The notes beneath the pieces are model-generated. The model saw only the letters and a program-made list of their open reading frames with translations, did not search any database and had not been told where the DNA came from. Position numbers and translations under genes: made by a program. This document shows, one piece after another, positions 16,537 to 30,909 of a stretch of DNA of 40,896 bases; positions within the stretch are counted from its first letter, which is position 1; each line of letters opens with the position of its first letter. Origin of the DNA: a virus (Duplodnaviria > Heunggongvirae > Uroviricota > Caudoviricetes). Location of the stretch: IMG/VR virus record IMGVR_UViG_2874920711_000001, one strand, 5' to 3'.

Positions 16537-16612
<76 letters not shown>

Positions 16613-16614
16613 AT

Positions 16615-16690
<76 letters not shown>

Positions 16691-16692
16691 CG

Positions 16693-16770
16693 CTGGCCCA
16701 CCACCGAGGACTCGAACCTCGCACCGTCAACTTAGAAGGTTGATGCTCTATCCGGATGAGCTAGTGGTGG
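16693..16770 (-). tRNA. tRNA-Arg (anticodon UCU)
   Basis: Acceptor stem ccaccac/gtggtgg, anticodon stem tcaac/gttga with loop cuTCTaa, T-loop ttcgagt, 3' CCA. Confidence 0.8.
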
Positions 16771-16847
16771 TTGGTGGCCCTTGCTGGACTTGAACCAGCG
16801 ACCTGGCGATTATGAGTCGCTCGCTCTGACCAACTGAGCTAAAGGGC
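16771..16847 (-). tRNA. tRNA with CAU anticodon, Ile2-like (would be called Met by anticodon alone)
   Basis: 77-nt cloverleaf, anticodon loop cuCATaa, T-arm resembles Ile2-type tRNAs. Confidence 0.7.
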
Positions 16848-16936
16848 CGGAGGCAGAATAATAACCATATGTCATCACATCTGCAAACTCATCTGACCAC
16901 CAGCACGTTTAACGTCCTGTGCCGTTTTTCAGGTAT

Positions 16937-17613: not shown

Positions 17614-17899
17614 AACGACCTCGCGTTTCGATGGTTTTTAACTCACCACCTGCGACGCCAATCGCTGGGTGGTGAACTGTGCAGGGTTGGCGTAACCGGT
17701 CGAAACATCCGGCGAGTCTCTCAACTCCCCCACACAGCCCACCATAAATCGCGAATGTGACTGTGCTTAGCGCATAAAAAAACCGCCAGCGCGGTTATGC
17801 ACCGTTTTGAGGTAGCCTGAGTTTAACGGACACTCCTTCCTGAAATAGAATGGCATCAGAAGGAGCTAATAATGAGCAGAAAAACCCAACGTTACTCTA

Positions 17900-18814
17900 G
17901 GCTGTGTCCCTTAATCATCTGAGCTATAGTAACTGTCTGTTTACACAACATATTGAACTATGGCTCGCTACGACCTTCCCGATGAGGCATGGACCATCAT
18001 CAAGCCCCTGTTACCTCCTGAACCCGCCACACCACGGGCCGGACGCCCATGGGCTGAGCACCGTAAAATCATCAATGGCATGTTCTGGGTGTTATGTTCC
18101 GGTGCACCATGGCGCGATTTACCCGAACGATATGGGTCATGGAAAACTGTTTATAACCGCTTTAACCGATGGTCAAAGTCAGGCGTGATTAATATTATTT
18201 TCAACAGGTTGCTTTCGCTACTTGATGCAAACGGCTTTATTGACTGGTCTGCCACCGCGCTGGATGGCAGTAATATCCGGGCGCTGAAATGTGCCGCCGG
18301 TGCTCAAAAAAACATCCCGATATCGACGGAGATAATGGGCTGGGTCGCTCTCGCGGCGGTTTTGGCACCAAAATCCATCTGGCAACAGACGGAAGTGGCC
18401 TCCCGTTAAATATCGTGCTAAGCCCGGACAAGCTCATGAAAGCCAGTTCGCGCAACGACTTCTGGACGGGATTGGCGTTCAGCGTCAGAACGGCAGCATG
18501 AAACGCCGTGGACATGCGGTACTGGCTGATAAAGCGTATTCAGGGCGCGCATTGCGCAACGAGCTGAAAAATAACGGTATAAAGGCAGTAATCCCCCGAA
18601 AGTCAAATGAGAAAATGGCATCGGATGGACGTGCACAGCTTGATCGTGATGCGTACTGCAATCGTAATGTCGTTGAACGGTGCTTTGGGCGGCTGAAAGA
18701 ATATCGCCGCATCGCCACGCGTTACGACAAAACGGCGAGAAATTACCTGGCGATGGTGAAACTGGGCTGCATCCGACTCTTTTATCAACGCTTACGTAAT
18801 TAAGGGACACAGCC
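17900..18814 (+). mobile_element. IS5-family insertion sequence (about 915 bp), TA duplication, inserted in IS600 orfA
   Basis: Inverted ends GGCTGTGTCCCTTAAT...ATTAAGGGACACAGCC; IS600 sequence resumes with duplicated TA. Confidence 0.7.
17960..18803 (+). pseudogene. IS5-family DDE transposase, frame broken at an A7 run (18306-18312) and a G run (18426-18427)
   Basis: Three consecutive ORFs (17960-18409, 18289-18501, 18498-18803) together read as one transposase (MARYDL..., TKIHLATDG..., KAYSG...RYDKTARNY). Confidence 0.7.
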
Positions 18815-19126
18815 TAAAGAGTTCAAAGCCGAAGCTGTCAGAACGGTTCTTGAAAATCAACTTTCGATCAGTGAAGGCGCTTCCCGATTATCCCTTCCTG
18901 AAGGCACTTTAGGACAATGGGTTACCGCCGCCAGAAAAGGACTCGGTACTCCTGGTTCCCGCACGGTGGCTGAACTGGAATCTGAAATTCTGCAACTGCG
19001 TAAGGCGTTAAATGAAGCTCGCCTTGAGCGAGATATATTAAAAAAAGCAACAGCGTATTTTGCACAGGAGTCGCTGAAAAATACGCGTTAATCGAACAAT
19101 GGCGACAACAATTTCCCATTGAAGCG

Positions 19127-20086
19127 ATGTGTCAGGTATTTGGTGTATCCAGGAGCGGTTATTACAACCGGGTACAGCATGAACCCTCAGACAGAAAACA
19201 AAGTGATGAGCGGCTAAAACTGGAGATTAAGGTGGCACATATCCGCACTCGCGAAACATATGGAACCCGGCGGCTCCAGACGGAGCTGGCAGAGAATGGC
19301 ATCATCGTTGGTCGTGACCGACTGGCACGTCTTCGTAAGGAGCTAAGGCTACGCTGTAAGCAGAAACGCAAGTTCAGAGCGACTACGAACCCGAACCACA
19401 ATCTGCCAGTTGCGCCAAATCTGCTGAACCAGACGTTCGCTCCTACAGCACCAAATCAGGTCTGGGTGGCGGACCTGACGTATGTTGCCACACAGGAGGG
19501 ATGGTTGTACCTCGCTGGCATCAAAGATGTTTATACGTGCGAAATTGTCGGCTACGCCATGGGAGAGCGCATGACAAAAGAGCTGACAGGTAAAGCCCTG
19601 TTTATGGCGCTCAGGAGCCAGCGCCCACCTGCCGGGCTAATCCACCACTCTGATCGAGGTTCACAGTACTGCGCATACGATTACCGGGTCATACAGGAGC
19701 AGTTTGGTCTGAAAACATCAATGTCGCGTAAAGGTAACTGTTACGACAACGCTCCGATGGAAAGCTTCTGGGGAACGCTGAAAAATGAGAGCCTGAGCCA
19801 CTATCGTTTTAATAACCGGGATGAAGCCATCTCAGTAATACGGGAATACATTGAGATTTTCTACAATCGTCAGCGTCGTCACTCTCGTCTGGGAATATCT
19901 CCCCGGCAGCCTTCAGGGAAAAATATCATCAGATGGCTGCTTAAAAAAAGAACAAATGGTAGTGTCCGCTATTGCCAGTACACCTCATTTCGATATCCGG
20001 GACGCCAATCCCGACGCCAGATTTTGCTGGCGCGTGAGGAATATAGCCCCGGATTAACGTTGTCGTCAACAGCCACTACAGGCTAA
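19127..20086 (+). pseudogene. IS600 OrfB with altered 3' end (G-run contraction at 19891-19893); reads past the IS end
   Basis: Identical to intact OrfB up to RLG, then frame changes; ORF extends beyond the IS600 terminus at 19987. Confidence 0.75.
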
Positions 20087-23195: not shown

Positions 23196-23650
23196 TCACA
23201 GTACCACCTCCTGAAAATTACCCTGATAGAAAGCCAGTACACGCTGCATAACTTCGCTTTTACGACACTCAGTACAAATTATATTATGACGCCTGTCGTA
23301 ACGATGTATTTCTCCGTCAGGTATGAGGTAGCCTGAGTTTAACGGACACTCCTTCCTGAAATAGAATGGCATCAGAAGGAGCTAATAATGAGCAGAAAAA
23401 CCCAACGTTACTCTAAAGAGTTCAAAGCCGAAGCTGTCAGAACGGTTCTTGAAAATCAACTTTCGATCAGTGAAGGCGCTTCCCGATTATCCCTTCCTGA
23501 AGGCACTTTAGGACAATGGGTTACCGCCGCCAGAAAAGGACTCGGTACTCCTGGTTCCCGCACGGTGGCTGAACTGGAATCTGAAATTCTGCAACTGCGT
23601 AAGGCGTTAAATGAAGCTCGCCTTGAGCGAGATATATTAAAAAAAGCAAC

Positions 23651-24869
23651 TGTAGATTCAATTGGTCAACGCAACAGTTATGTGAAAACATGGGTTGCGG
23701 AGGTTTTTTGAATGAGACGAACATTTACAGCAGAGGAAAAAGCCTCTGTTTTTGAACTATGGAAGAACGGAACAGGCTTCAGTGAAATAGCGAATATCCT
23801 GGGTTCAAAACCCGGAACGATCTTCACTATGTTAAGGGATACTGGCGGCATAAAACCCCATGAGCGTAAGCGGGCTGTAGCTCACCTGACACTGTCTGAG
23901 CGCGAGGAGATACGAGCTGGTTTGTCAGCCAAAATGAGCATTCGTGCGATAGCTACTGCGCTGAATCGCAGTCCTTCGACGATCTCACGTGAAGTTCAGC
24001 GTAATCGGGGCAGACGCTATTACAAAGCTGTTGATGCTAATAACCGAGCCAACAGAATGGCGAAAAGGCCAAAACCGTGCTTACTGGATCAAAATTTACC
24101 ATTGCGAAAGCTTGTTCTGGAAAAGCTGGAGATGAAATGGTCTCCAGAGCAAATATCAGGATGGTTAAGGCGAACAAAACCACGTCAAAAAACGCTGCGA
24201 ATATCACCTGAGACAATTTATAAAACGCTGTACTTTCGTAGCCGTGAAGCGCTACACCACCTGAATATACAGCATCTGCGACGGTCGCATAGCCTTCGCC
24301 ATGGCAGGCGTCATACCCGCAAAGGCGAAAGAGGTACGATTAACATAGTGAACGGAACACCAATTCACGAACGTTCCCGAAATATCGATAACAGACGCTC
24401 TCTGGGCATTGGGAGGGCGATTTAGTCTCAGGTACAAAAAACTCTCATATAGCCACACTTGTAGACCGAAAATCACGTTATACGATCATCCTTAGACTCA
24501 GGGGCAAAGATTCTGTCTCAGTAAATCAGGCTCTTACCGACAAATTCCTGAGTTTACCGTCAGAACTCAGAAAATCACTGACATGGGACAGAGGAATGGA
24601 ACTGGCCAGACATCTAGAATTTACTGTCAGCACCGGCGTTAAAGTTTACTTCTGCGATCCTCAGAGTCCTTGGCAGCGGGGAACAAATGAGAACACAAAT
24701 GGGCTAATTCGGCAGTACTTTCCTAAAAAGACATGTCTTGCCCAATATACTCAACATGAACTAGATCTGGTTGCTGCTCAGCTAAACAACAGACCGAGAA
24801 AGACACTGAAGTTCAAAACACCGAAAGAGATAATTGAAAGGGGTGTTGCATTGACAGATTGAATCTACA
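23651..24869 (+). mobile_element. IS30 copy (1219 bp) nested in IS600 orfA
   Basis: Ends TGTAGATTCAAT...; 1 bp shorter than the copy at 6972-8191 because of a G-run difference upstream of the transposase start. Confidence 0.8.
23712..24862 (+). pseudogene. IS30 transposase, same 1-bp frame break as the 6979-8129 copy (G run at 24404-24406)
   Basis: 237-aa ORF plus 88-aa ORF 24596-24862. Confidence 0.8.
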
Positions 24870-24946
24870 ACAGCGTATTTTGCACAGGAGTCGCTGAAAA
24901 ATACGCGTTAATCGAACAATGGCGACAACAATTTCCCATTGAAGCG

Positions 24947-25822
24947 ATGTGTCAGGTATTTGGTGTATCCAGGAGCGGTTATTACAACTGGGTACAGCAT
25001 GAACCCTCAGACAGAAAACAAAGTGATGAGCGGCTAAAACTGGAGATTAAGGTGGCACATATCCGCACTCGCGAAACATATGGAACCCGGCGGCTCCAGA
25101 CGGAGCTGGCAGAGAATGGCATCATCGTTGGTCGTGACCGACTGGCACGTCTTCGTAAGGAGCTAAGGCTACGCTGTAAGCAGAAACGCAAGTTCAGAGC
25201 GACTACGAACCCGAACCACAATCTGCCAGTTGCGCCAAATCTGCTGAACCAGACGTTCGCTCCTACAGCACCAAATCAGGTCTGGGTGGCGGACCTGACG
25301 TATGTTGCCACACAGGAGGGATGGTTGTACCTCGCTGGCATCAAAGATGTTTATACGTGCGAAATTGTCGGCTACGCCATGGGAGAGCGCATGACAAAAG
25401 AGCTGACAGGTAAAGCCCTGTTTATGGCGCTCAGGAGCCAGCGCCCACCTGCCGGGCTAATCCACCACTCTGATCGAGGTTCACAGTACTGCGCATACGA
25501 TTACCGGGTCATACAGGAGCAGTTTGGTCTGAAAACATCAATGTCGCGTAAAGGTAACTGTTACGACAACGCTCCGATGGAAAGCTTCTGGGGAACGCTG
25601 AAAAATGAGAGCCTGAGCCACTATCGTTTTAATAACCGGGATGAAGCCATCTCAGTAATACGGGAATACATTGAGATTTTCTACAATCGTCAGCGTCGTC
25701 ACTCTCGTCTGGGGAATATCTCCCGGCAGCCTTCAGGGAACAATATCATCAGATGGCTGCTTAAAAAAAGAACAAATGGTAGTGTCCGCTATTGCCAGTA
25801 CACCTCAGTAATGACCAGATAA
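24947..25822 (+). pseudogene. IS600 OrfB with altered 3' end (C-run contraction at 25722-25724)
   Basis: Identical to intact OrfB up to RLGNIS, then frame changes and reads past the IS end at 25807. Confidence 0.75.
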
Positions 25823-26105
25823 GATCCAGATCAACCACAGATGGTTTCCTCACCTTTACTCTCGAGAGTTTTTTGCGGGCGCTTTGCCAGTCCTTGCGAG
25901 CCTGTTCAGACGGGAATAAGCCGTAGCCAGAATTATATACATCACCACTTGCGACCAGTTCTATGCATAAGCGACCGACAGACGCACGACTGATACCTGT
26001 TTCATCGGACAACTGCCGAATCGTGACCCGACCGTCCTGATGCACGAGTTCCACAATTCGCGTCTTCAGTTCTTCCCGCTGTTCGGGAGTAAAAGGTTTC
26101 GCCAT
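25808..26105 (-). pseudogene. Winged-helix DNA-binding protein gene, 5' part; interrupted by the IS600/IS30 composite (3' part at 23196-23323)
   Basis: Removing the IS and one GTA copy restores a roughly 140-aa ORF ending at 23196; contains an HTH-like segment and a CTEC motif. Confidence 0.55.
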
Positions 26106-26174
26106 AAATCCTCCTGAAACTACTTAACAACCCTCGAATGGCTAACATTCGGACGCCAGCTCTCCAGTTAAAAT

Positions 26175-26864
26175 TCACCCAGCGCCGCCGTTCATGACCA
26201 TGCGATCCATCACCCGCTCGCCGAGCAATGTTTTCATCACCTCATAGTTCAGGTTTGTCAGCATCCCCACGCTGCGCATCGACGCTGTCCGGCGATCAAC
26301 AATCTGGTGCAGCACCACCTGCTCGTTTTTCGTCTCGCGCTGAATGCCAATTTCATCAAGAACCAGCAGATCCACTTCGCACAGCTCCCGCAAAAATTTT
26401 TCGCCTGACTGCCCGTCGTCATAGCTGGCGTGCAGGGCGCTCATAACATCAGCCACGGTAACCACAATCACTGTCTGACCGTCTTTCAGCAGGCGATTCC
26501 CGATAGCTGCCGCTAAGTGATTCTTCCCGGTACCAGGTTTTCCGCTGAACGCAAAATTTGTACACCCGGTCATCAGTTCATCGGCGATGGATTTCGCCTG
26601 GCTTAACGCGTATCGCTGGCCGTCGTTCTGCACCTGGTAATTCGCAAACGAGCATTTACGGTGCAACGGCTGGATGCCTGAGCGATTCAGAATTTTTTCC
26701 ACCCGCAACTGGCGATTCAGGCGGTTGATCTCCTCGCTACGTTTCTGGCCTTCAGCAAGTTGCCACTCGCGCCACTCCGCTACCGTTCTGAATGGGGCGG
26801 TTACATGTGGCGGGGTCAGTCGGCGGATGCGTTCCAGAACGCCGCCTGTCGCAATATTTTTCAT
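26175..26864 (-). CDS. DnaC/IstB-like replication helicase-loader ATPase
   Basis: 229-aa ORF with Walker A GKPGTGKNHLA and Walker B LLVLDEIG; start overlaps the stop of the upstream replication gene (ATGA). Confidence 0.8.
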   Translation of the reverse strand: MKNIATGGVLERIRRLTPPHVTAPFRTVAEWREWQLAEGQKRSEEINRLNRQLRVEKILNRSGIQPLHRKCSFANYQVQNDGQRYALSQAKSIADELMTGCTNFAFSGKPGTGKNHLAAAIGNRLLKDGQTVIVVTVADVMSALHASYDDGQSGEKFLRELCEVDLLVLDEIGIQRETKNEQVVLHQIVDRRTASMRSVGMLTNLNYEVMKTLLGERVMDRMVMNGGAG

Positions 26865-27643
26865 GGTCCGTTACCCCTGAAGCCTGGCGGGATCGCACTG
26901 TCCGGCAACGAGACGGTGTTAACCTGTCGGAGCAACGTCTCAGGCCGAACACCTTTCGGCGCGAACAGGCCCTGGTATTCATTGGCGATGCTGTGTCGAA
27001 TCACCTGCTCAGGTGTAAAACCCTGCTGACGGAATTTTTCCAGTTCCCGTATCGCCCGTTAGCGCCCTGCTCCGTTCGAATCGGTTTTCGCAATGCCTGT
27101 CTGAACCGGACCCACTCATGCCAGAGTGTTTCCGGCAACCAATCGGGCAGCTCAATAGCCTCCGGCTCGAATTTTTTAGACGCTCGTTTTTGGCGAGGGG
27201 ATTTAGGGGAGATCAGTATTTAGATCTTCCTCTGGTAACGCTTTTTGATCCGTTTGTGTAACGCTGGCAGCGTTACCTTTTCGTTTCAGTTCGCGTATTT
27301 TTGTTACTCGCTCGTTTGTAACCGCCCGTTTTTTAGAGCTTTTTCCGTTATGACGTTCAAAGTTAGGTAGAGAAAGCCCACCGTCATTTTCGACCAGCCA
27401 TCCAACCTGAATTAACGCATCAGCAAAACCAGACATAAAAGTGATGCGATCTATTGCACTTTTTGTAACGCCGCGAGCGTTACAATCTGCATTACCGTCT
27501 ATCATTTGTTGATCCGCCCATGCCCAGAAGCGAATAACCTTCCCTAATGCGGCATCTGGATCAATATTCAGAATCTCAGCAAGCCTGAATATTTCCGGCT
27601 TATCCGGCGTAATAACCTCGAGCTTTATCCAGTTTGAAGCCAT
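26861..27643 (-). pseudogene. Phage replication initiation (replisome organiser-like) protein, at least two frame changes
   Basis: 146-aa N-terminal ORF 27203-27643; the remainder is readable in two further frame segments down to the stop at 26861. Confidence 0.6.
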
Positions 27644-27720: not shown

Positions 27721-28143
27721 TCAATGCACTACGACAGAATCGCCGGGCGACCCACCACCGCTGAAATGTGCTTTCCGGTAAACGGCCTGGACAGCATCAT
27801 CATGCGCATCAATTGCCGTACTCAACGCTTCCTGCGCCGCCAGTAATGCACGGCGTTCCAGGGTATCGAAGATACAGAGTCGGTGACGCAGCTCACGCGG
27901 AAGAATTGCCAGAACCGCAGGGATCAGTTTCTGAATTTTTTCCCTTTGCGCTTTCGTTTCACCTTTCAACCAACGGTGATAGATATTCTGCTGATTGTTC
28001 CAGTCCTTGCCTGGTACCAGAGACAATTCGCCGCCCCCTGCCGCAGATATTCTTCAGTAATTGCGTTAGCGACCCACGCCTGCCCTTTTTCGGCTGCCAG
28101 GGCTAACAGCACTGATTCGATGTGCTCATGCCTGATTTTCATG
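27721..28143 (-). pseudogene. ydaT: YdaT-like protein, frame broken by contraction of a C/G run at 28034-28038
   Basis: ATG at 28143 gives MKIRHEHIESVLLALAAEKGQAWVANAITEEYLRQG then shifts; the 101-aa ORF 27721-28026 is the continuation. Confidence 0.65.
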
Positions 28144-28145
28144 AA

Positions 28146-28352
28146 TCACCTTCCCAGGTCGTTTTGCCTTACGATATTCGTCATAAACTTTGGGGTCGTA
28201 CTGAAGTTCCCCGCCAGATGCCTCTTGCAGGCGCATCGCGCGACCTTCAGGAACCAGTTCCCCCATGCAGCAATGCTTGCCAGCCTAACTCCTGCGGCAT
28301 TGGCAAGCTTTGTTTTGCTGCCAAAAAACGCTATAGCATCAATTTTCAACAT
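28146..28352 (-). pseudogene. ydaS: YdaS-like Cro-type HTH protein, frame broken by contraction of a C/G run at 28260-28264
   Basis: N-terminal MLKIDAIAFFGSKTKLANAAGVRLASIAAWG; the adjacent frame continues ELVPEGRAMRLQEASGGELQYDPKVYDEYRKAK. Confidence 0.6.
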
Positions 28353-28360
28353 ATCGAGCT

Positions 28361-28378
28361 CCTTAGATTTTCCTAAGG
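28361..28378. promoter_or_regulatory. Palindromic operator-like site CCTTAGattttcCTAAGG in the divergent ydaS/repressor intergenic region
   Basis: Perfect 6-bp inverted repeat with 6-bp spacer; further CCTAAG/CTTAGG copies at 28397-28405 and 3' of the repressor gene. Confidence 0.5.
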
Positions 28379-28428
28379 AAACCAGATCGTAGAGAAACCT
28401 AAGTCAAGAAAAATTAGAATTCCCTAAT

Positions 28429-28836
28429 ATGAAAAACGAAACCTTCGGTGCTCGCCTCTTACATAGGCGTAAAAAATTAAAACTGTCTCAGGCCGCATTA
28501 GGTAAGCTGGTCAAAGTGGCTCACGTAACAATTTCTCAATGGGAAAGAGATGAAACACAGCCGGCGGGGAAAAGATTATTCGCACTGAGCCAAGCGCTTC
28601 AGTGCTCACCGACTTGGCTTCTTTTTGGGGATGAAGATAAACAACCAGGCGAACCGATCCCGGATAATCAGCCAGCCATTCTGACAGAAGATCAAAAAGA
28701 GTTACTTCAACTGTTCGACGCACTGCCTGAGTCAGAGCAAAAGGCCCTGTTGTCAGAGATGCGTGCTCGAGTTGAAAATTTCAACAAACTTTTTGAAGAA
28801 CTACTCAAAGCTCGCAAAAGAAGCGCAAACAAATAA
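28429..28836 (+). CDS. racR: Prophage repressor, XRE-family HTH (RacR-like)
   Basis: 135-aa ORF with HTH segment LSQAALGKLVKVAHVTISQWERDE, divergent from ydaS and flanked on both sides by operator-like repeats. Confidence 0.6.
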   Translation: MKNETFGARLLHRRKKLKLSQAALGKLVKVAHVTISQWERDETQPAGKRLFALSQALQCSPTWLLFGDEDKQPGEPIPDNQPAILTEDQKELLQLFDALPESEQKALLSEMRARVENFNKLFEELLKARKRSANK

Positions 28837-28906
28837 TCCCCTTTTTTCTCCACACCCTGTAATAAAAAGCACAAACTTTCAAACACTTGTGTTTTTTACA
28901 TCAAAA

Positions 28907-28956
28907 AACTTAGGTTTTTCTACATAAAAATCTTGACCACCCACCTTAGGTTATTC
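28907..28956 (+). promoter_or_regulatory. Operator-like CTTAGG repeats with a TTGACC -35-like element (pL-like early-left promoter region)
   Basis: cttagg at 28911-28916 and ccttagg at 28945-28951; TTGACC immediately precedes the second site; downstream genes are all on the + strand. Confidence 0.4.
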
Positions 28957-29038
28957 TAAATTTCATTCATCAAGACACCGCACGGTGTTCTCAGCAAACA
29001 GTTCCGCTACCCCGGCGTTAAGGGGAAATGGGGTCAAC

Positions 29039-29194
29039 ATGAATACTATCGATCTTGGCAACAACGAATCTCTGGTGTACGGCGTGTTCCCCAACCAGAA
29101 CGGCACATTCACCGCCATGACGTATACCAAAAGCAAAACGTTTAAAACCGAAGCTGGCGCACGTCGTTGGTTGGGAAGACATTCAGGTGAGTAA
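29039..29194 (+). CDS. Small prophage protein (51 aa), YdaF-like
   Basis: ATG with GGGG/AAGGGGA Shine-Dalgarno; first gene after the pL-like region. ORF track lists a longer GTG-started version from 28985. Confidence 0.5.
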   Translation: MNTIDLGNNESLVYGVFPNQNGTFTAMTYTKSKTFKTEAGARRWLGRHSGE

Positions 29195-29672: not shown

Positions 29673-30172
29673 TTCCTTACTGGTTGTGCGAGAACTTCAG
29701 TAAAGATACCACCAAAGCCCGGAGGTGGTGAAATAAAACCGGGCACAACACGAAGGCGCATTTCCGGTATCCATAAAGAGTCGGTCTTGTCTGTTAAATT
29801 TAAATGGTGGGAGTGCGCCTCCGGTTGTAAATAACGACATTGCTGTGTGAAGTACCAGTTGGCGGCATCGGTTTAATTGCTGGCTGATGTCCGCCCTTTT
29901 TAAAGTGAATTTTGTGATGCGGTGAATGCGGCTCAGCGCACGCGGAACAGTTAAAACAGTAAGGAAAATCCCTTATTCCGGCGTTAATTATTAACTGGTT
30001 AACGTCACCTGGAGGCACCAGGCACCGCATCAACAAAGTTCACTTCGGTGATGAAAGGAAAGAGAAAATGTTGAATGTAGCTATTGAAAACCAGAACGGG
30101 TGGAATTATAGTGCACCTGCACCTCATAAAACGGGTGCCGGGATTGCTACCCCGAAGTCATTCACGGCGCAT

Positions 30173-30196
30173 AACCGCGCTCAGGCGGTTTTTTTA
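30173..30196 (+). terminator. Rho-independent terminator-like hairpin inside the early-left operon
   Basis: accgc-gctcag-gcggt stem-loop followed by T7; no convincing + strand ORF ends just upstream. Confidence 0.5.
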
Positions 30197-30360
30197 TGCG
30201 TAATGCACAGCCACATTCAAATTATGGTGGGGCGTGCGGGCAGTCGCAAGACTGGCCGGGTTCCGTGATGACCGGTTGTAGCAACCCTGTACGTCTCACC
30301 ACCCATGAGATTGCTACCTCCGGTGGTGAGTTAATCAAATTCATCGCGGAGGCTGCCATC

Positions 30361-30909
30361 ATGGCTACTACCCTTTCTCACCCTTGTGTAACCGTAGAAA
30401 ACGGTCGCGCTGTCACTACGTCTGTTGCGGTTGCAGAGTTCTTCCACAAACGACACGACAATGTGTTACGTGCCATCGCAAATATTGAATGCTCAGATAA
30501 ATTTACTGCCCTCAATTTTGAGGCGAGCGAATACACCGACTCAACCGGGCGCAAACTCCCAATGTACCAAATCACCAAAAACGGCTTCGTTTTCCTGGTG
30601 ATGGGCTTCACTGGCAAAAAAGCCGCCGCATTCAAGGAAGCCTACATTGCTGAGTTCGACCGCATGGAGGCCGAACTGCGCCAGAATAACACCCCACCTG
30701 CTGACAAGATGATTCCGGGTGATGGTCGCACTCTGGTTGTTCACTTCGACAAATTCGGCAATGTCGAATTCACCGAAACCGTTCCTGATGGCGCACTGGT
30801 CTGTACCCTGGAGACTTTCCGGTTTTATCTGGAAAAACAGGGATGGACTCTTGTTAACCGGGGCGCAATTAAAAATATGACTGTGGAACAATTACTTTCT
30901 TTAAAATAA
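30361..30909 (+). CDS. Rha-family phage regulatory protein / antirepressor
   Basis: N-terminal segment TSVAVAEFFHKRHDNVLRAI typical of Rha-family proteins; ORF track lists an extended version from 30196. Confidence 0.65.
   Translation: MATTLSHPCVTVENGRAVTTSVAVAEFFHKRHDNVLRAIANIECSDKFTALNFEASEYTDSTGRKLPMYQITKNGFVFLVMGFTGKKAAAFKEAYIAEFDRMEAELRQNNTPPADKMIPGDGRTLVVHFDKFGNVEFTETVPDGALVCTLETFRFYLEKQGWTLVNRGAIKNMTVEQLLSLK

Follow-up and report, generated by a model that had tools for sequence, protein, structure and literature searches.

The closest described relative of the locus considered here is the dicC-dicA-dicBp region of the Qin (Kim) prophage of E. coli K-12. In Qin, DicA binds the operator Oc in vivo, binding is lost when one A of CTAA is changed to C, and Oc overlaps the -10 element of the dicC promoter, whose transcription start site was mapped experimentally; DicA also activates its own weak promoter, and Om and Oa, two more sites, were picked out from sequence only, neither of them binding DicA when alone (PMC3441716). 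DicA also represses a second promoter, dicBp, upstream of ydfA, and deletion of dicA raises dicBp 22-fold. Three operators are described 3' of dicA, DicC is required for spontaneous switching, and DicA has no RecA-type cleavage site, and its repression is relieved by the antirepressor Rem (PMC10448788). The P22 repressor C2 is a protein of 216 aa with an Ala-Gly bond for RecA-mediated cleavage, whereas DicA has 135 aa and lacks that bond (PMC10448788). In the Rac prophage the corresponding genes are racR, ydaS and ydaT, and the footprinted Rac YdaT-box is ATGATTCATGAAAATCAA; the box of CP-933P is TTGATT-N6-AATCAA (PMC11879457).

We analysed a stretch of 40,896 nucleotides of viral DNA (hereafter the window) and read the interval at 28146-28956 as a DicA/DicC immunity switch, related to P22 immC, in a degraded Rac/Qin-like lambdoid prophage of a Shigella-type chromosome (probability about 0.9). 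Judged by homology, the locus is a mosaic of two adjoining modules, one for DicA/DicC immunity and a Rac-like one with ydaT-ydaU-ydaV. The system is already known, being an ordinary DicA/DicC switch. Two aspects are mildly new: an operator flank unlike that of Qin, which co-varies with a helix-2 residue, and repeated homopolymer-run mutations in the lytic arm. The features are as follows, in order along the window.

27721-28142, minus strand: ydaT-type (CII-analogue) gene, frameshifted; assigned from Pfam and from identity to Rac YdaT
28126-28352, minus strand: dicC-type (P22 Cro-like) gene, frameshifted; assigned from its ORFs and the intact copy in relative L001
28132-28149, minus strand: YdaT-box-like inverted repeat GTGATTCATGAAAATCAG (coding strand), spanning the ydaT start codon
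28360-28379, strandless: O1, TCCTTAGATTTTCCTAAGGA, a perfect 20-bp palindrome; putative Qin Oc counterpart
28379-28407, minus strand: predicted dicC promoter (PR analogue), by positional homology to Qin
28387-28404, strandless: O2, TCGTAGAGAAACCTAAGT, a weaker dyad in the spacer of the predicted dicC promoter; putative Qin Om counterpart
28412-28429, strandless: O3, AATTAGAATTCCCTAATA, ending at the A of the dicA ATG; putative Qin Oa counterpart
28429-28836, plus strand: dicA-type repressor gene, intact, 135 aa; assigned from homology and profile models
28863-28898, plus strand: likely dicA terminator, a hairpin and T run past the dicA stop codon
28908-28925, strandless: O4, ACTTAGGTTTTTCTACAT, an operator-like dyad preceding the -35 box by 8 bp
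28933-28962, plus strand: dicBp-type promoter (PL analogue), TTGACC, 17 or 18 nt, CTAAAT or TAAATT
28944-28961, strandless: O5, CCTTAGGTTATTCTAAAT, overlapping the spacer and -10 of the dicBp-type promoter
29039-29194, plus strand: ydfA-type gene (DUF1391), first gene of the dicBp-type operon

The repressor is 62% identical to K-12 Qin DicA over its full length, and it matched the NCBIfam DicA model (NF007257 / PRK09706) with 237.3 bits against a cut-off of 101, the match covering residues 1-135 of 135. Residues 2-69 align to the solved N-terminal domain of P22 C2 (E = 1e-21), and the layout is that of a P22 C2-like N-terminal HTH domain followed by a short C-terminal domain. By these matches the protein is a DicA homologue with a P22 C2-like N-terminal domain. 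A preliminary description of this DNA had called it RacR-like, which does not hold: BLASTP found no similarity to K-12 RacR (E = 2.9 over 5 residues), and tblastn with RacR and YdaS returned no match in the window. The repressor has no S24 peptidase domain, its Pfam matches being to HTH families only, and an Ala-Gly dipeptide at residues 46-47 lies inside the HTH domain, without a catalytic domain. Because the cleavage bond is missing and Pfam finds only HTH families, the window DicA would be inactivated via an antirepressor or through instability.

On the minus strand, dicC and ydaT are overlapping genes, each split into two ORFs. The first of these had been described as ydaS-like; it gave no alignment to YdaS at E ≤ 100, and its Pfam match is P22_Cro. 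The intact product of L001, a relative that is 99.6% identical, shows 75% identity to K-12 DicC, scores 158 bits with the NCBIfam DicC model (cut-off 130) and matches P22 Cro at E = 2.4e-7, so the divergent gene is a DicC gene of the P22 Cro-like kind. The description of the second gene as YdaT-like was correct, since a 101-aa fragment matches Pfam YdaT_toxin (PF06254, E = 2e-11) and the intact orthologue and Rac YdaT share 94% identity.

A Rac-type region, in which a RacR-like repressor would control ydaS and ydaT via the repeats, draws some plausibility from this second gene. In addition to the 94% identity of YdaT, the genes that follow are ydaU/ydaV-like (they are also broken), and the order of repressor, divergent Cro-like gene and ydaT is that of Rac. 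Rac and the window also have the CI/Cro/CII logic in common, and the inverted repeat that spans the ydaT start codon resembles the Rac YdaT-box. The repressor and Cro-like protein of the window, however, belong to families unrelated to those of Rac: neither has detectable similarity to its Rac counterpart, tblastn with both was blank in the window, and both window proteins score above the curated DicA/DicC cut-offs. At the level of sequence the Rac-type reading is already refuted, and we regard it as scarcely credible. The Rac immunity region had been put forward as the comparator for this interval; by DicA/DicC identity, the right one is Qin dicA-dicC-dicBp.

With Qin as the reference for the DicA/DicC switch, the repressor (62%) and the Cro-like gene (75%) are homologous and the 135-aa repressor architecture is common to both. 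The perfect palindrome reported earlier between the divergent genes is indeed present: the inverted repeat CCTTAGATTTTCCTAAGG occupies 28361-28378, between start codons at 28352 (minus) and 28429 (plus), and in its extended form it is the 20-bp O1 at 28360-28379. The further copies that had been placed 3' of the repressor beside TTGACC were also recovered, as O4 (28908-28925) and O5 (28944-28961), which flank TTGACC at 28933-28938. Two extra intergenic dyads, O2 (28387-28404) and O3 (28412-28429), were absent from the earlier account and bring the totals to three between the divergent genes and two 3' of the repressor. The proposal of an OR/OL-like layout is borne out: one group of dyads separates the repressor gene from the Cro-like gene, and a second accompanies a TTGACC promoter 3' of the repressor.

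The positions of these dyads match those of Qin. In Qin, TTGTTAGTCATAACTAACAA and GATTTAGCATTAGCTAACTA precede the dicA ATG by 66 and 16 bp respectively, and ATGTTAGTCATGGCTAATCT lies directly past a TTGACC box downstream of dicA; in both regions the core TTAG-N6-CTAA is found about 66 and about 15-16 bp upstream of the ATG, O1 at -66 having the position of Oc. A Qin-type Oc-like 20-bp repeat near the dicC -10 and two weaker sites before dicA are, to judge by the alignment, present at homologous positions in the window, and O1, O2 and O3 would correspond to Oc, Om and Oa, with O4, O5 and TTGACC as the probable counterparts of the dicBp operators and promoter. Because neither Om nor Oa was bound by itself in Qin, O2-O5 may require cooperativity, or some of them may not be DicA sites. 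Compared with the three operators described 3' of dicA in the literature, the window has two convincing dyads there.

A search for the half-site across the window, which had been suggested as a check on the repeats, upheld their local clustering and gave no window-wide enrichment. The hexamer CCTTAG/CTAAGG occurs 13 times in the 40.9 kb against 13.3 expected, and 3 of the 13 copies fall within the 811-bp interval (binomial P = 0.002); an 18-mer with up to 3 mismatches likewise showed no enrichment across the window. Exact TTAG-N6-CTAA, by comparison, was found 3 times against 0.33 expected, a count reached in 0 of 100 shuffles, and all three matches lie inside the 278 bp of non-coding DNA that flank the repressor gene (P = 3e-7). 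When up to one mismatch was allowed, 5 of 16 core matches lay inside the same 278 bp (P = 6e-8). The information lies only in the local clustering and in the dyad core. CC/GG flanks are found at the strongest site only, and the element recognised is, on this pattern, the 14-bp dyad core TTAG-N6-CTAA and not the hexamer CCTTAG.

We compared the intergenic region with those of relatives, drawing on 80 related loci from IMG/VR and 4 phage records. Conservation of columns in an ungapped, ATG-anchored comparison was blurred by 1-bp shifts, and a MAFFT alignment of 12 lineages, with DicA 62-100% identical to that of the window, was used instead. Invariant in the 12 lineages were TTAG and CTA of O1, the sequence AGTCAA (the -35 of the dicC promoter read on the other strand), and TTAG and CTAA of O3, while spacers and flanks varied; the downstream dyad pair and the TTGAC box were also kept in relatives. 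At the O1-equivalent position, TCCTTAGGTTTTCCTAAGGA is found in a Klebsiella phage (71% identical) and CTGTTAGATTTTTCTAACAA in a Stenotrophomonas phage. In mEp460, which has another recognition helix, a different palindrome, ATTGAG-N4-CTCAAT, occurs at that position.

It could be argued that the repeats do not bind protein and are by-products of AT-rich promoter DNA and shared ancestry. Several dyad halves do coincide with the promoter and ribosome-binding elements TAGAAT, CTAAAT and AAGGAG, close relatives are non-independent samples, and Om and Oa of Qin were unbound by DicA when alone (PMC3441716). What such an origin leaves unaccounted for is a dyad symmetry of fixed 14-bp geometry that persists at five sites although flanks and spacers have diverged, a joint shift of operator flank and helix-2 residue between lineages, and the other palindrome that mEp460 carries in the same place; binding to Oc, moreover, was demonstrated in Qin (PMC3441716). 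We therefore consider by-product repeats very unlikely and continue to treat the dyads as putative DicA operators.

The flanks of the core differ between the window and Qin (CC..GG versus TG..CA), as does the helix-2 residue that follows a conserved Gln (Ala in the window, Arg in Qin). Over five lineages, the two bases next to the TTAG core change with this residue: the window type and Klebsiella phage ST405-OXA48phi1.2 combine Ala or Ser with CCTTAG; Qin, the L085/L086 type and the Stenotrophomonas phage combine Arg with TGTTAG. The L085/L086 type has the recognition helix 3 of the window with Arg in helix 2, and its flanks are TG. This apparent covariation is a lead on specificity and not a result. 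A proposal that goes further, and that we hold as possible at somewhat less than even odds, is that the window DicA is heteroimmune to Qin DicA by a natural specificity swap and that, separately, loss of the lytic arm was selected to lock the switch.

The dicC promoter is predicted to comprise a -35 TTGACT (28407..28402), a 17-nt spacer and a -10 TGGTTT (28384..28379), which compares with TTGACT-17-TATCTT in Qin. At 28383 the window has C where most relatives have T, changing the predicted -10 from TAGTTT to TGGTTT, and the invariant -11 adenine is gone; the TAGTTT of the relatives itself matches the consensus at 3 of 6 positions only. AAGGAG (28364..28359), the Shine-Dalgarno sequence of dicC, is overlapped by O1, which is also directly adjacent to the predicted -10. 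In the other direction, O3 contains a -10-like TAGAAT (28415-28420) that matches the -10 consensus at 5 of 6 positions, and dicA is without a Shine-Dalgarno sequence. If TAGAAT serves as the dicA -10, transcription would start about 2 nt before the ATG, and because of this start and the missing Shine-Dalgarno sequence the dicA mRNA is probably nearly leaderless. Neither the dicC nor the dicA promoter was called in a promoter scan of the window, and both assignments rest on Qin homology. Past the dicA stop codon, a hairpin with a minimum free energy of -9.4 kcal/mol (z = -2.85) and a T run probably terminate dicA transcription; relatives have hairpins of other sequence in the same place after dicA.

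In the switch as we propose it, dimers of the intact 135-aa DicA homologue would bind the 18-20-bp dyads through the core TTAG-N6-CTAA. DicA on O1, a site that would cover both the predicted dicC start site and the ribosome-binding site, would act with DicA on O2 to shut off dicC-ydaT transcription and, by analogy with Qin and lambda, to stimulate its own promoter, which is likely to be weak and activator-dependent like that of cI from lambda PRM. O3 would be placed for negative autoregulation and for targeting by DicC, and at O4/O5 DicA would block RNA polymerase, presumably by occlusion, at the dicBp-type promoter into ydfA.

The distal promoter was called by the promoter scan as TTGACC-18-TAAATT at 28933-28962, and its TTGACC aligns with the TTGACC upstream of ydfA in Qin. 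The gene that follows matches Pfam DUF1391 (E = 8e-27) and is 90% identical to K-12 YdfA; in both regions an operator overlaps a TTGACC promoter that precedes ydfA, and the leader from the promoter -10 into ydfA is almost identical. The near-identity downstream of the -10 places a mosaic boundary where the immunity module ends. Beyond it, the window differs from Qin in having no dicF, dicB, ydfD or rem: an Rfam scan found no DicF in the window, and tblastn with Rem, DicB, YdfD, KilR, SieB and RacC found none of them there. The absence of dicF and dicB is a matter of cargo and not of the switch itself. A LexA box upstream of the isrK/C4/Rha module, which could have linked an antirepressor to the SOS response, was considered and rejected, the full consensus being absent. 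A CTGT-N8-CCAG at 29843 is 1 of 25 such weak matches in the window.

On the lytic side, the window differs from Qin in that dicC is frameshifted, its predicted promoter has lost the -11 adenine, and the gene after dicC is a Rac-type ydaT in place of ydfX/ydfW. The earlier observation that both lytic-side genes are frame-broken stands, and each break can be placed at a 1-bp deletion in a C run. In dicC, the window has C5 at 28260-28264 compared with C6 in the relative, and the frame is lost past approximately residue 31; in ydaT, a C6 run has become C5 at 28034-28038.

Two C6-to-C5 single deletions relative to a 99.6% identical relative are what long-read homopolymer errors would look like, in which case the switch would be intact and functional in the organism. 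Other details point the same way: between 25808 and 28260 the window differs from that relative by 9 single G/C-run deletions and a handful of substitutions, it equals CP026824.1 at each indel site compared, its deletion at 27197 is not in the independent contig L011, and L007 has C4 at the ydaT run. Against errors in these two genes, the exact 68-aa frameshifted DicC product was found on 13 contigs from at least 9 samples, including 7 complete genomes and Logan contigs. The 58-aa frameshifted YdaT product occurred in 40 listed blocks of the collection, of which 24 contigs were read; among its carriers are Logan assemblies from several sequencing runs and an NCBI draft made up of short contigs. 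The dicC and ydaT breaks occur in every combination, singly or together, and the strains that carry them show substitution differences as well. Since many independent assemblies have the frameshifted products, the breaks are very probably real alleles, and homopolymer error as the source of both is unlikely. Sequencing error for both breaks had been suggested by the excess of G/C-run deletions against FDAARGOS_943 and was dropped when the products were seen to recur elsewhere. The frame breaks may have arisen more than once by slippage. Sequencing error may still explain some of the other indels, for example that at 27197, where L011 differs.

With both breaks taken as real alleles, the lytic arm is dead three times over, and the replication genes downstream are broken too. 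With the -11 adenine missing from the predicted dicC promoter, dicC and ydaT frameshifted and the replication genes broken, the switch would be locked in the repressor state. The preliminary description had argued that the lytic genes would no longer be released by repressor loss if the breaks are real; this is reasonable given the breaks, with the correction that the pair concerned is DicC/YdaT and not YdaS/YdaT. The possible selection to lock the switch, as distinct from neutral decay, concerns the repeated and independent loss of the -11 adenine and the dicC and ydaT frameshifts, which occur in all combinations in Shigella-type genomes.

The DicA/DicC switch of the window can also be set beside other known systems. 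P22 immC has divergent genes and a multi-site operator region, as in the window, with the DicA N-terminal domain aligning to C2 (residues 2-69) and DicC to P22 Cro; the P22 operators probably have the outer TTA-N8-TAA geometry in common with the dyads. The CI/Cro region of lambda likewise has three operators over two divergent promoters and distant operators at the leftward promoter. In lambda, too, the strongest site adjoins the lytic promoter and the repressor promoter is weak, a weak and probably nearly leaderless one being likewise predicted for the window. The repressor family differs from that of lambda, and the window has a repressor without a cleavage domain and two convincing distal sites only. 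A dicA allele 97.8% identical to that of the window is found in the PPompW prophages of Shiga-toxin-producing E. coli (for example LC567836.1), where the genes are annotated dicA and dicC. There dicC is intact, a 183-aa hypothetical protein and not a Rac-type ydaT lies past dicC, and dicA is followed on its own strand by ydfC and a gene with the annotation "cell division inhibition protein".

For annotation, the correct labels in this interval are dicA as a gene, dicC and ydaT as pseudogenes, DicA operators and a dicBp-type promoter, and not RacR/YdaS; beyond annotation, the importance of the locus is little. It is a clean example of a cryptic prophage that retains its repressor while the lytic arm decays via homopolymer slippage. 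The conserved core with its lineage-specific flanks offers natural operator/repressor pairs for tests of specificity in P22 C2-like repressors, and if the proposed specificity swap is true, one residue outside the recognition helix would set immunity specificity in the P22 C2-like family.

An inverted repeat resembling the YdaT box spans the ydaT start codon, and the footprinted box of the Rac prophage differs from it only at the two outermost bases. Between O1 and O2, two of the operator-like dyads that separate the divergent dicC and dicA genes, we found clustered substitutions (28380-28389) when comparing the window with the related loci L004, L011, L012, and L021. Here AAACTAGATCG is replaced by AAACCAGATCG, AAACCAGGCCG, or AAACCAGGCTG among the compared loci, and the cluster falls exactly where the -10 element of the dicC promoter is predicted.

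28132-28149, inverted repeat resembling the YdaT box (coding strand: GTGATTCATGAAAATCAG)

Across 25808-27225, comparison with the nearly identical locus of the relative FDAARGOS_943 revealed seven single deletions in G/C runs of the window and one 6-bp deletion of a repeat unit, with substitutions almost absent; these deletions break the ydaU-like, ydaV-like, and DUF977 genes. One independent contig carries the deletion at 27206 and lacks that at 27197. The deletions may be a mixture of real slippage and assembly error.

The gene for exodeoxyribonuclease VIII, recE (31602-33541), persists as two open reading frames matching model positions 1-351 and 375-596 of 877, beyond which the gene meets an IS element. 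RalA, the antitoxin sRNA that acts in the Rac-type RalR/RalA system, is present at full length, as would suit a prophage with a Rac-like backbone. IS600-type elements occur as many copies and fragments in both orientations, some of these carrying another element inserted within them; together with a match to CssrB, they point to a Shigella-type genome. The cluster of four tRNA genes may be borne by the prophage. The SraC/RyeA and SdsR/RyeB genes probably lie in chromosomal DNA at the prophage edge.

37398-37576, RalA sRNA (Rfam)
800-2065, 6033-8520, 17808-19987, 23310-25807, and 34571-37076, IS600-type elements
2079-2261, CssrB "Shigella sRNA" match (Rfam)
16538-16848, minus strand, tRNAs Gly-TCC, Thr-TGT, Arg-TCT, and Met-CAT
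40290-40434, SraC/RyeA and SdsR/RyeB sRNA genes (Rfam)

The isrK and C4 antisense RNA matches overlap the start of a gene for a Rha-family phage regulator, an arrangement that resembles the c4/ant layout of P1 immI. A second C4 match, accompanied by matches to isrK and the c4-a1b1 target, is divided by IS sequence and may be the remnant of another module of the isrK/C4 type.

30119-30306, isrK and C4 antisense RNA (Rfam)
30196-30909, Rha-family phage regulator gene
17665-17749 and 19944-20046, minus strand, second C4 antisense RNA match with isrK and c4-a1b1 target matches (Rfam)

We found no convincing LexA box in the window upstream of the module formed by isrK, C4, and the Rha-family gene. 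This module could provide an antirepressor route for DicA, a repressor that is not open to cleavage.
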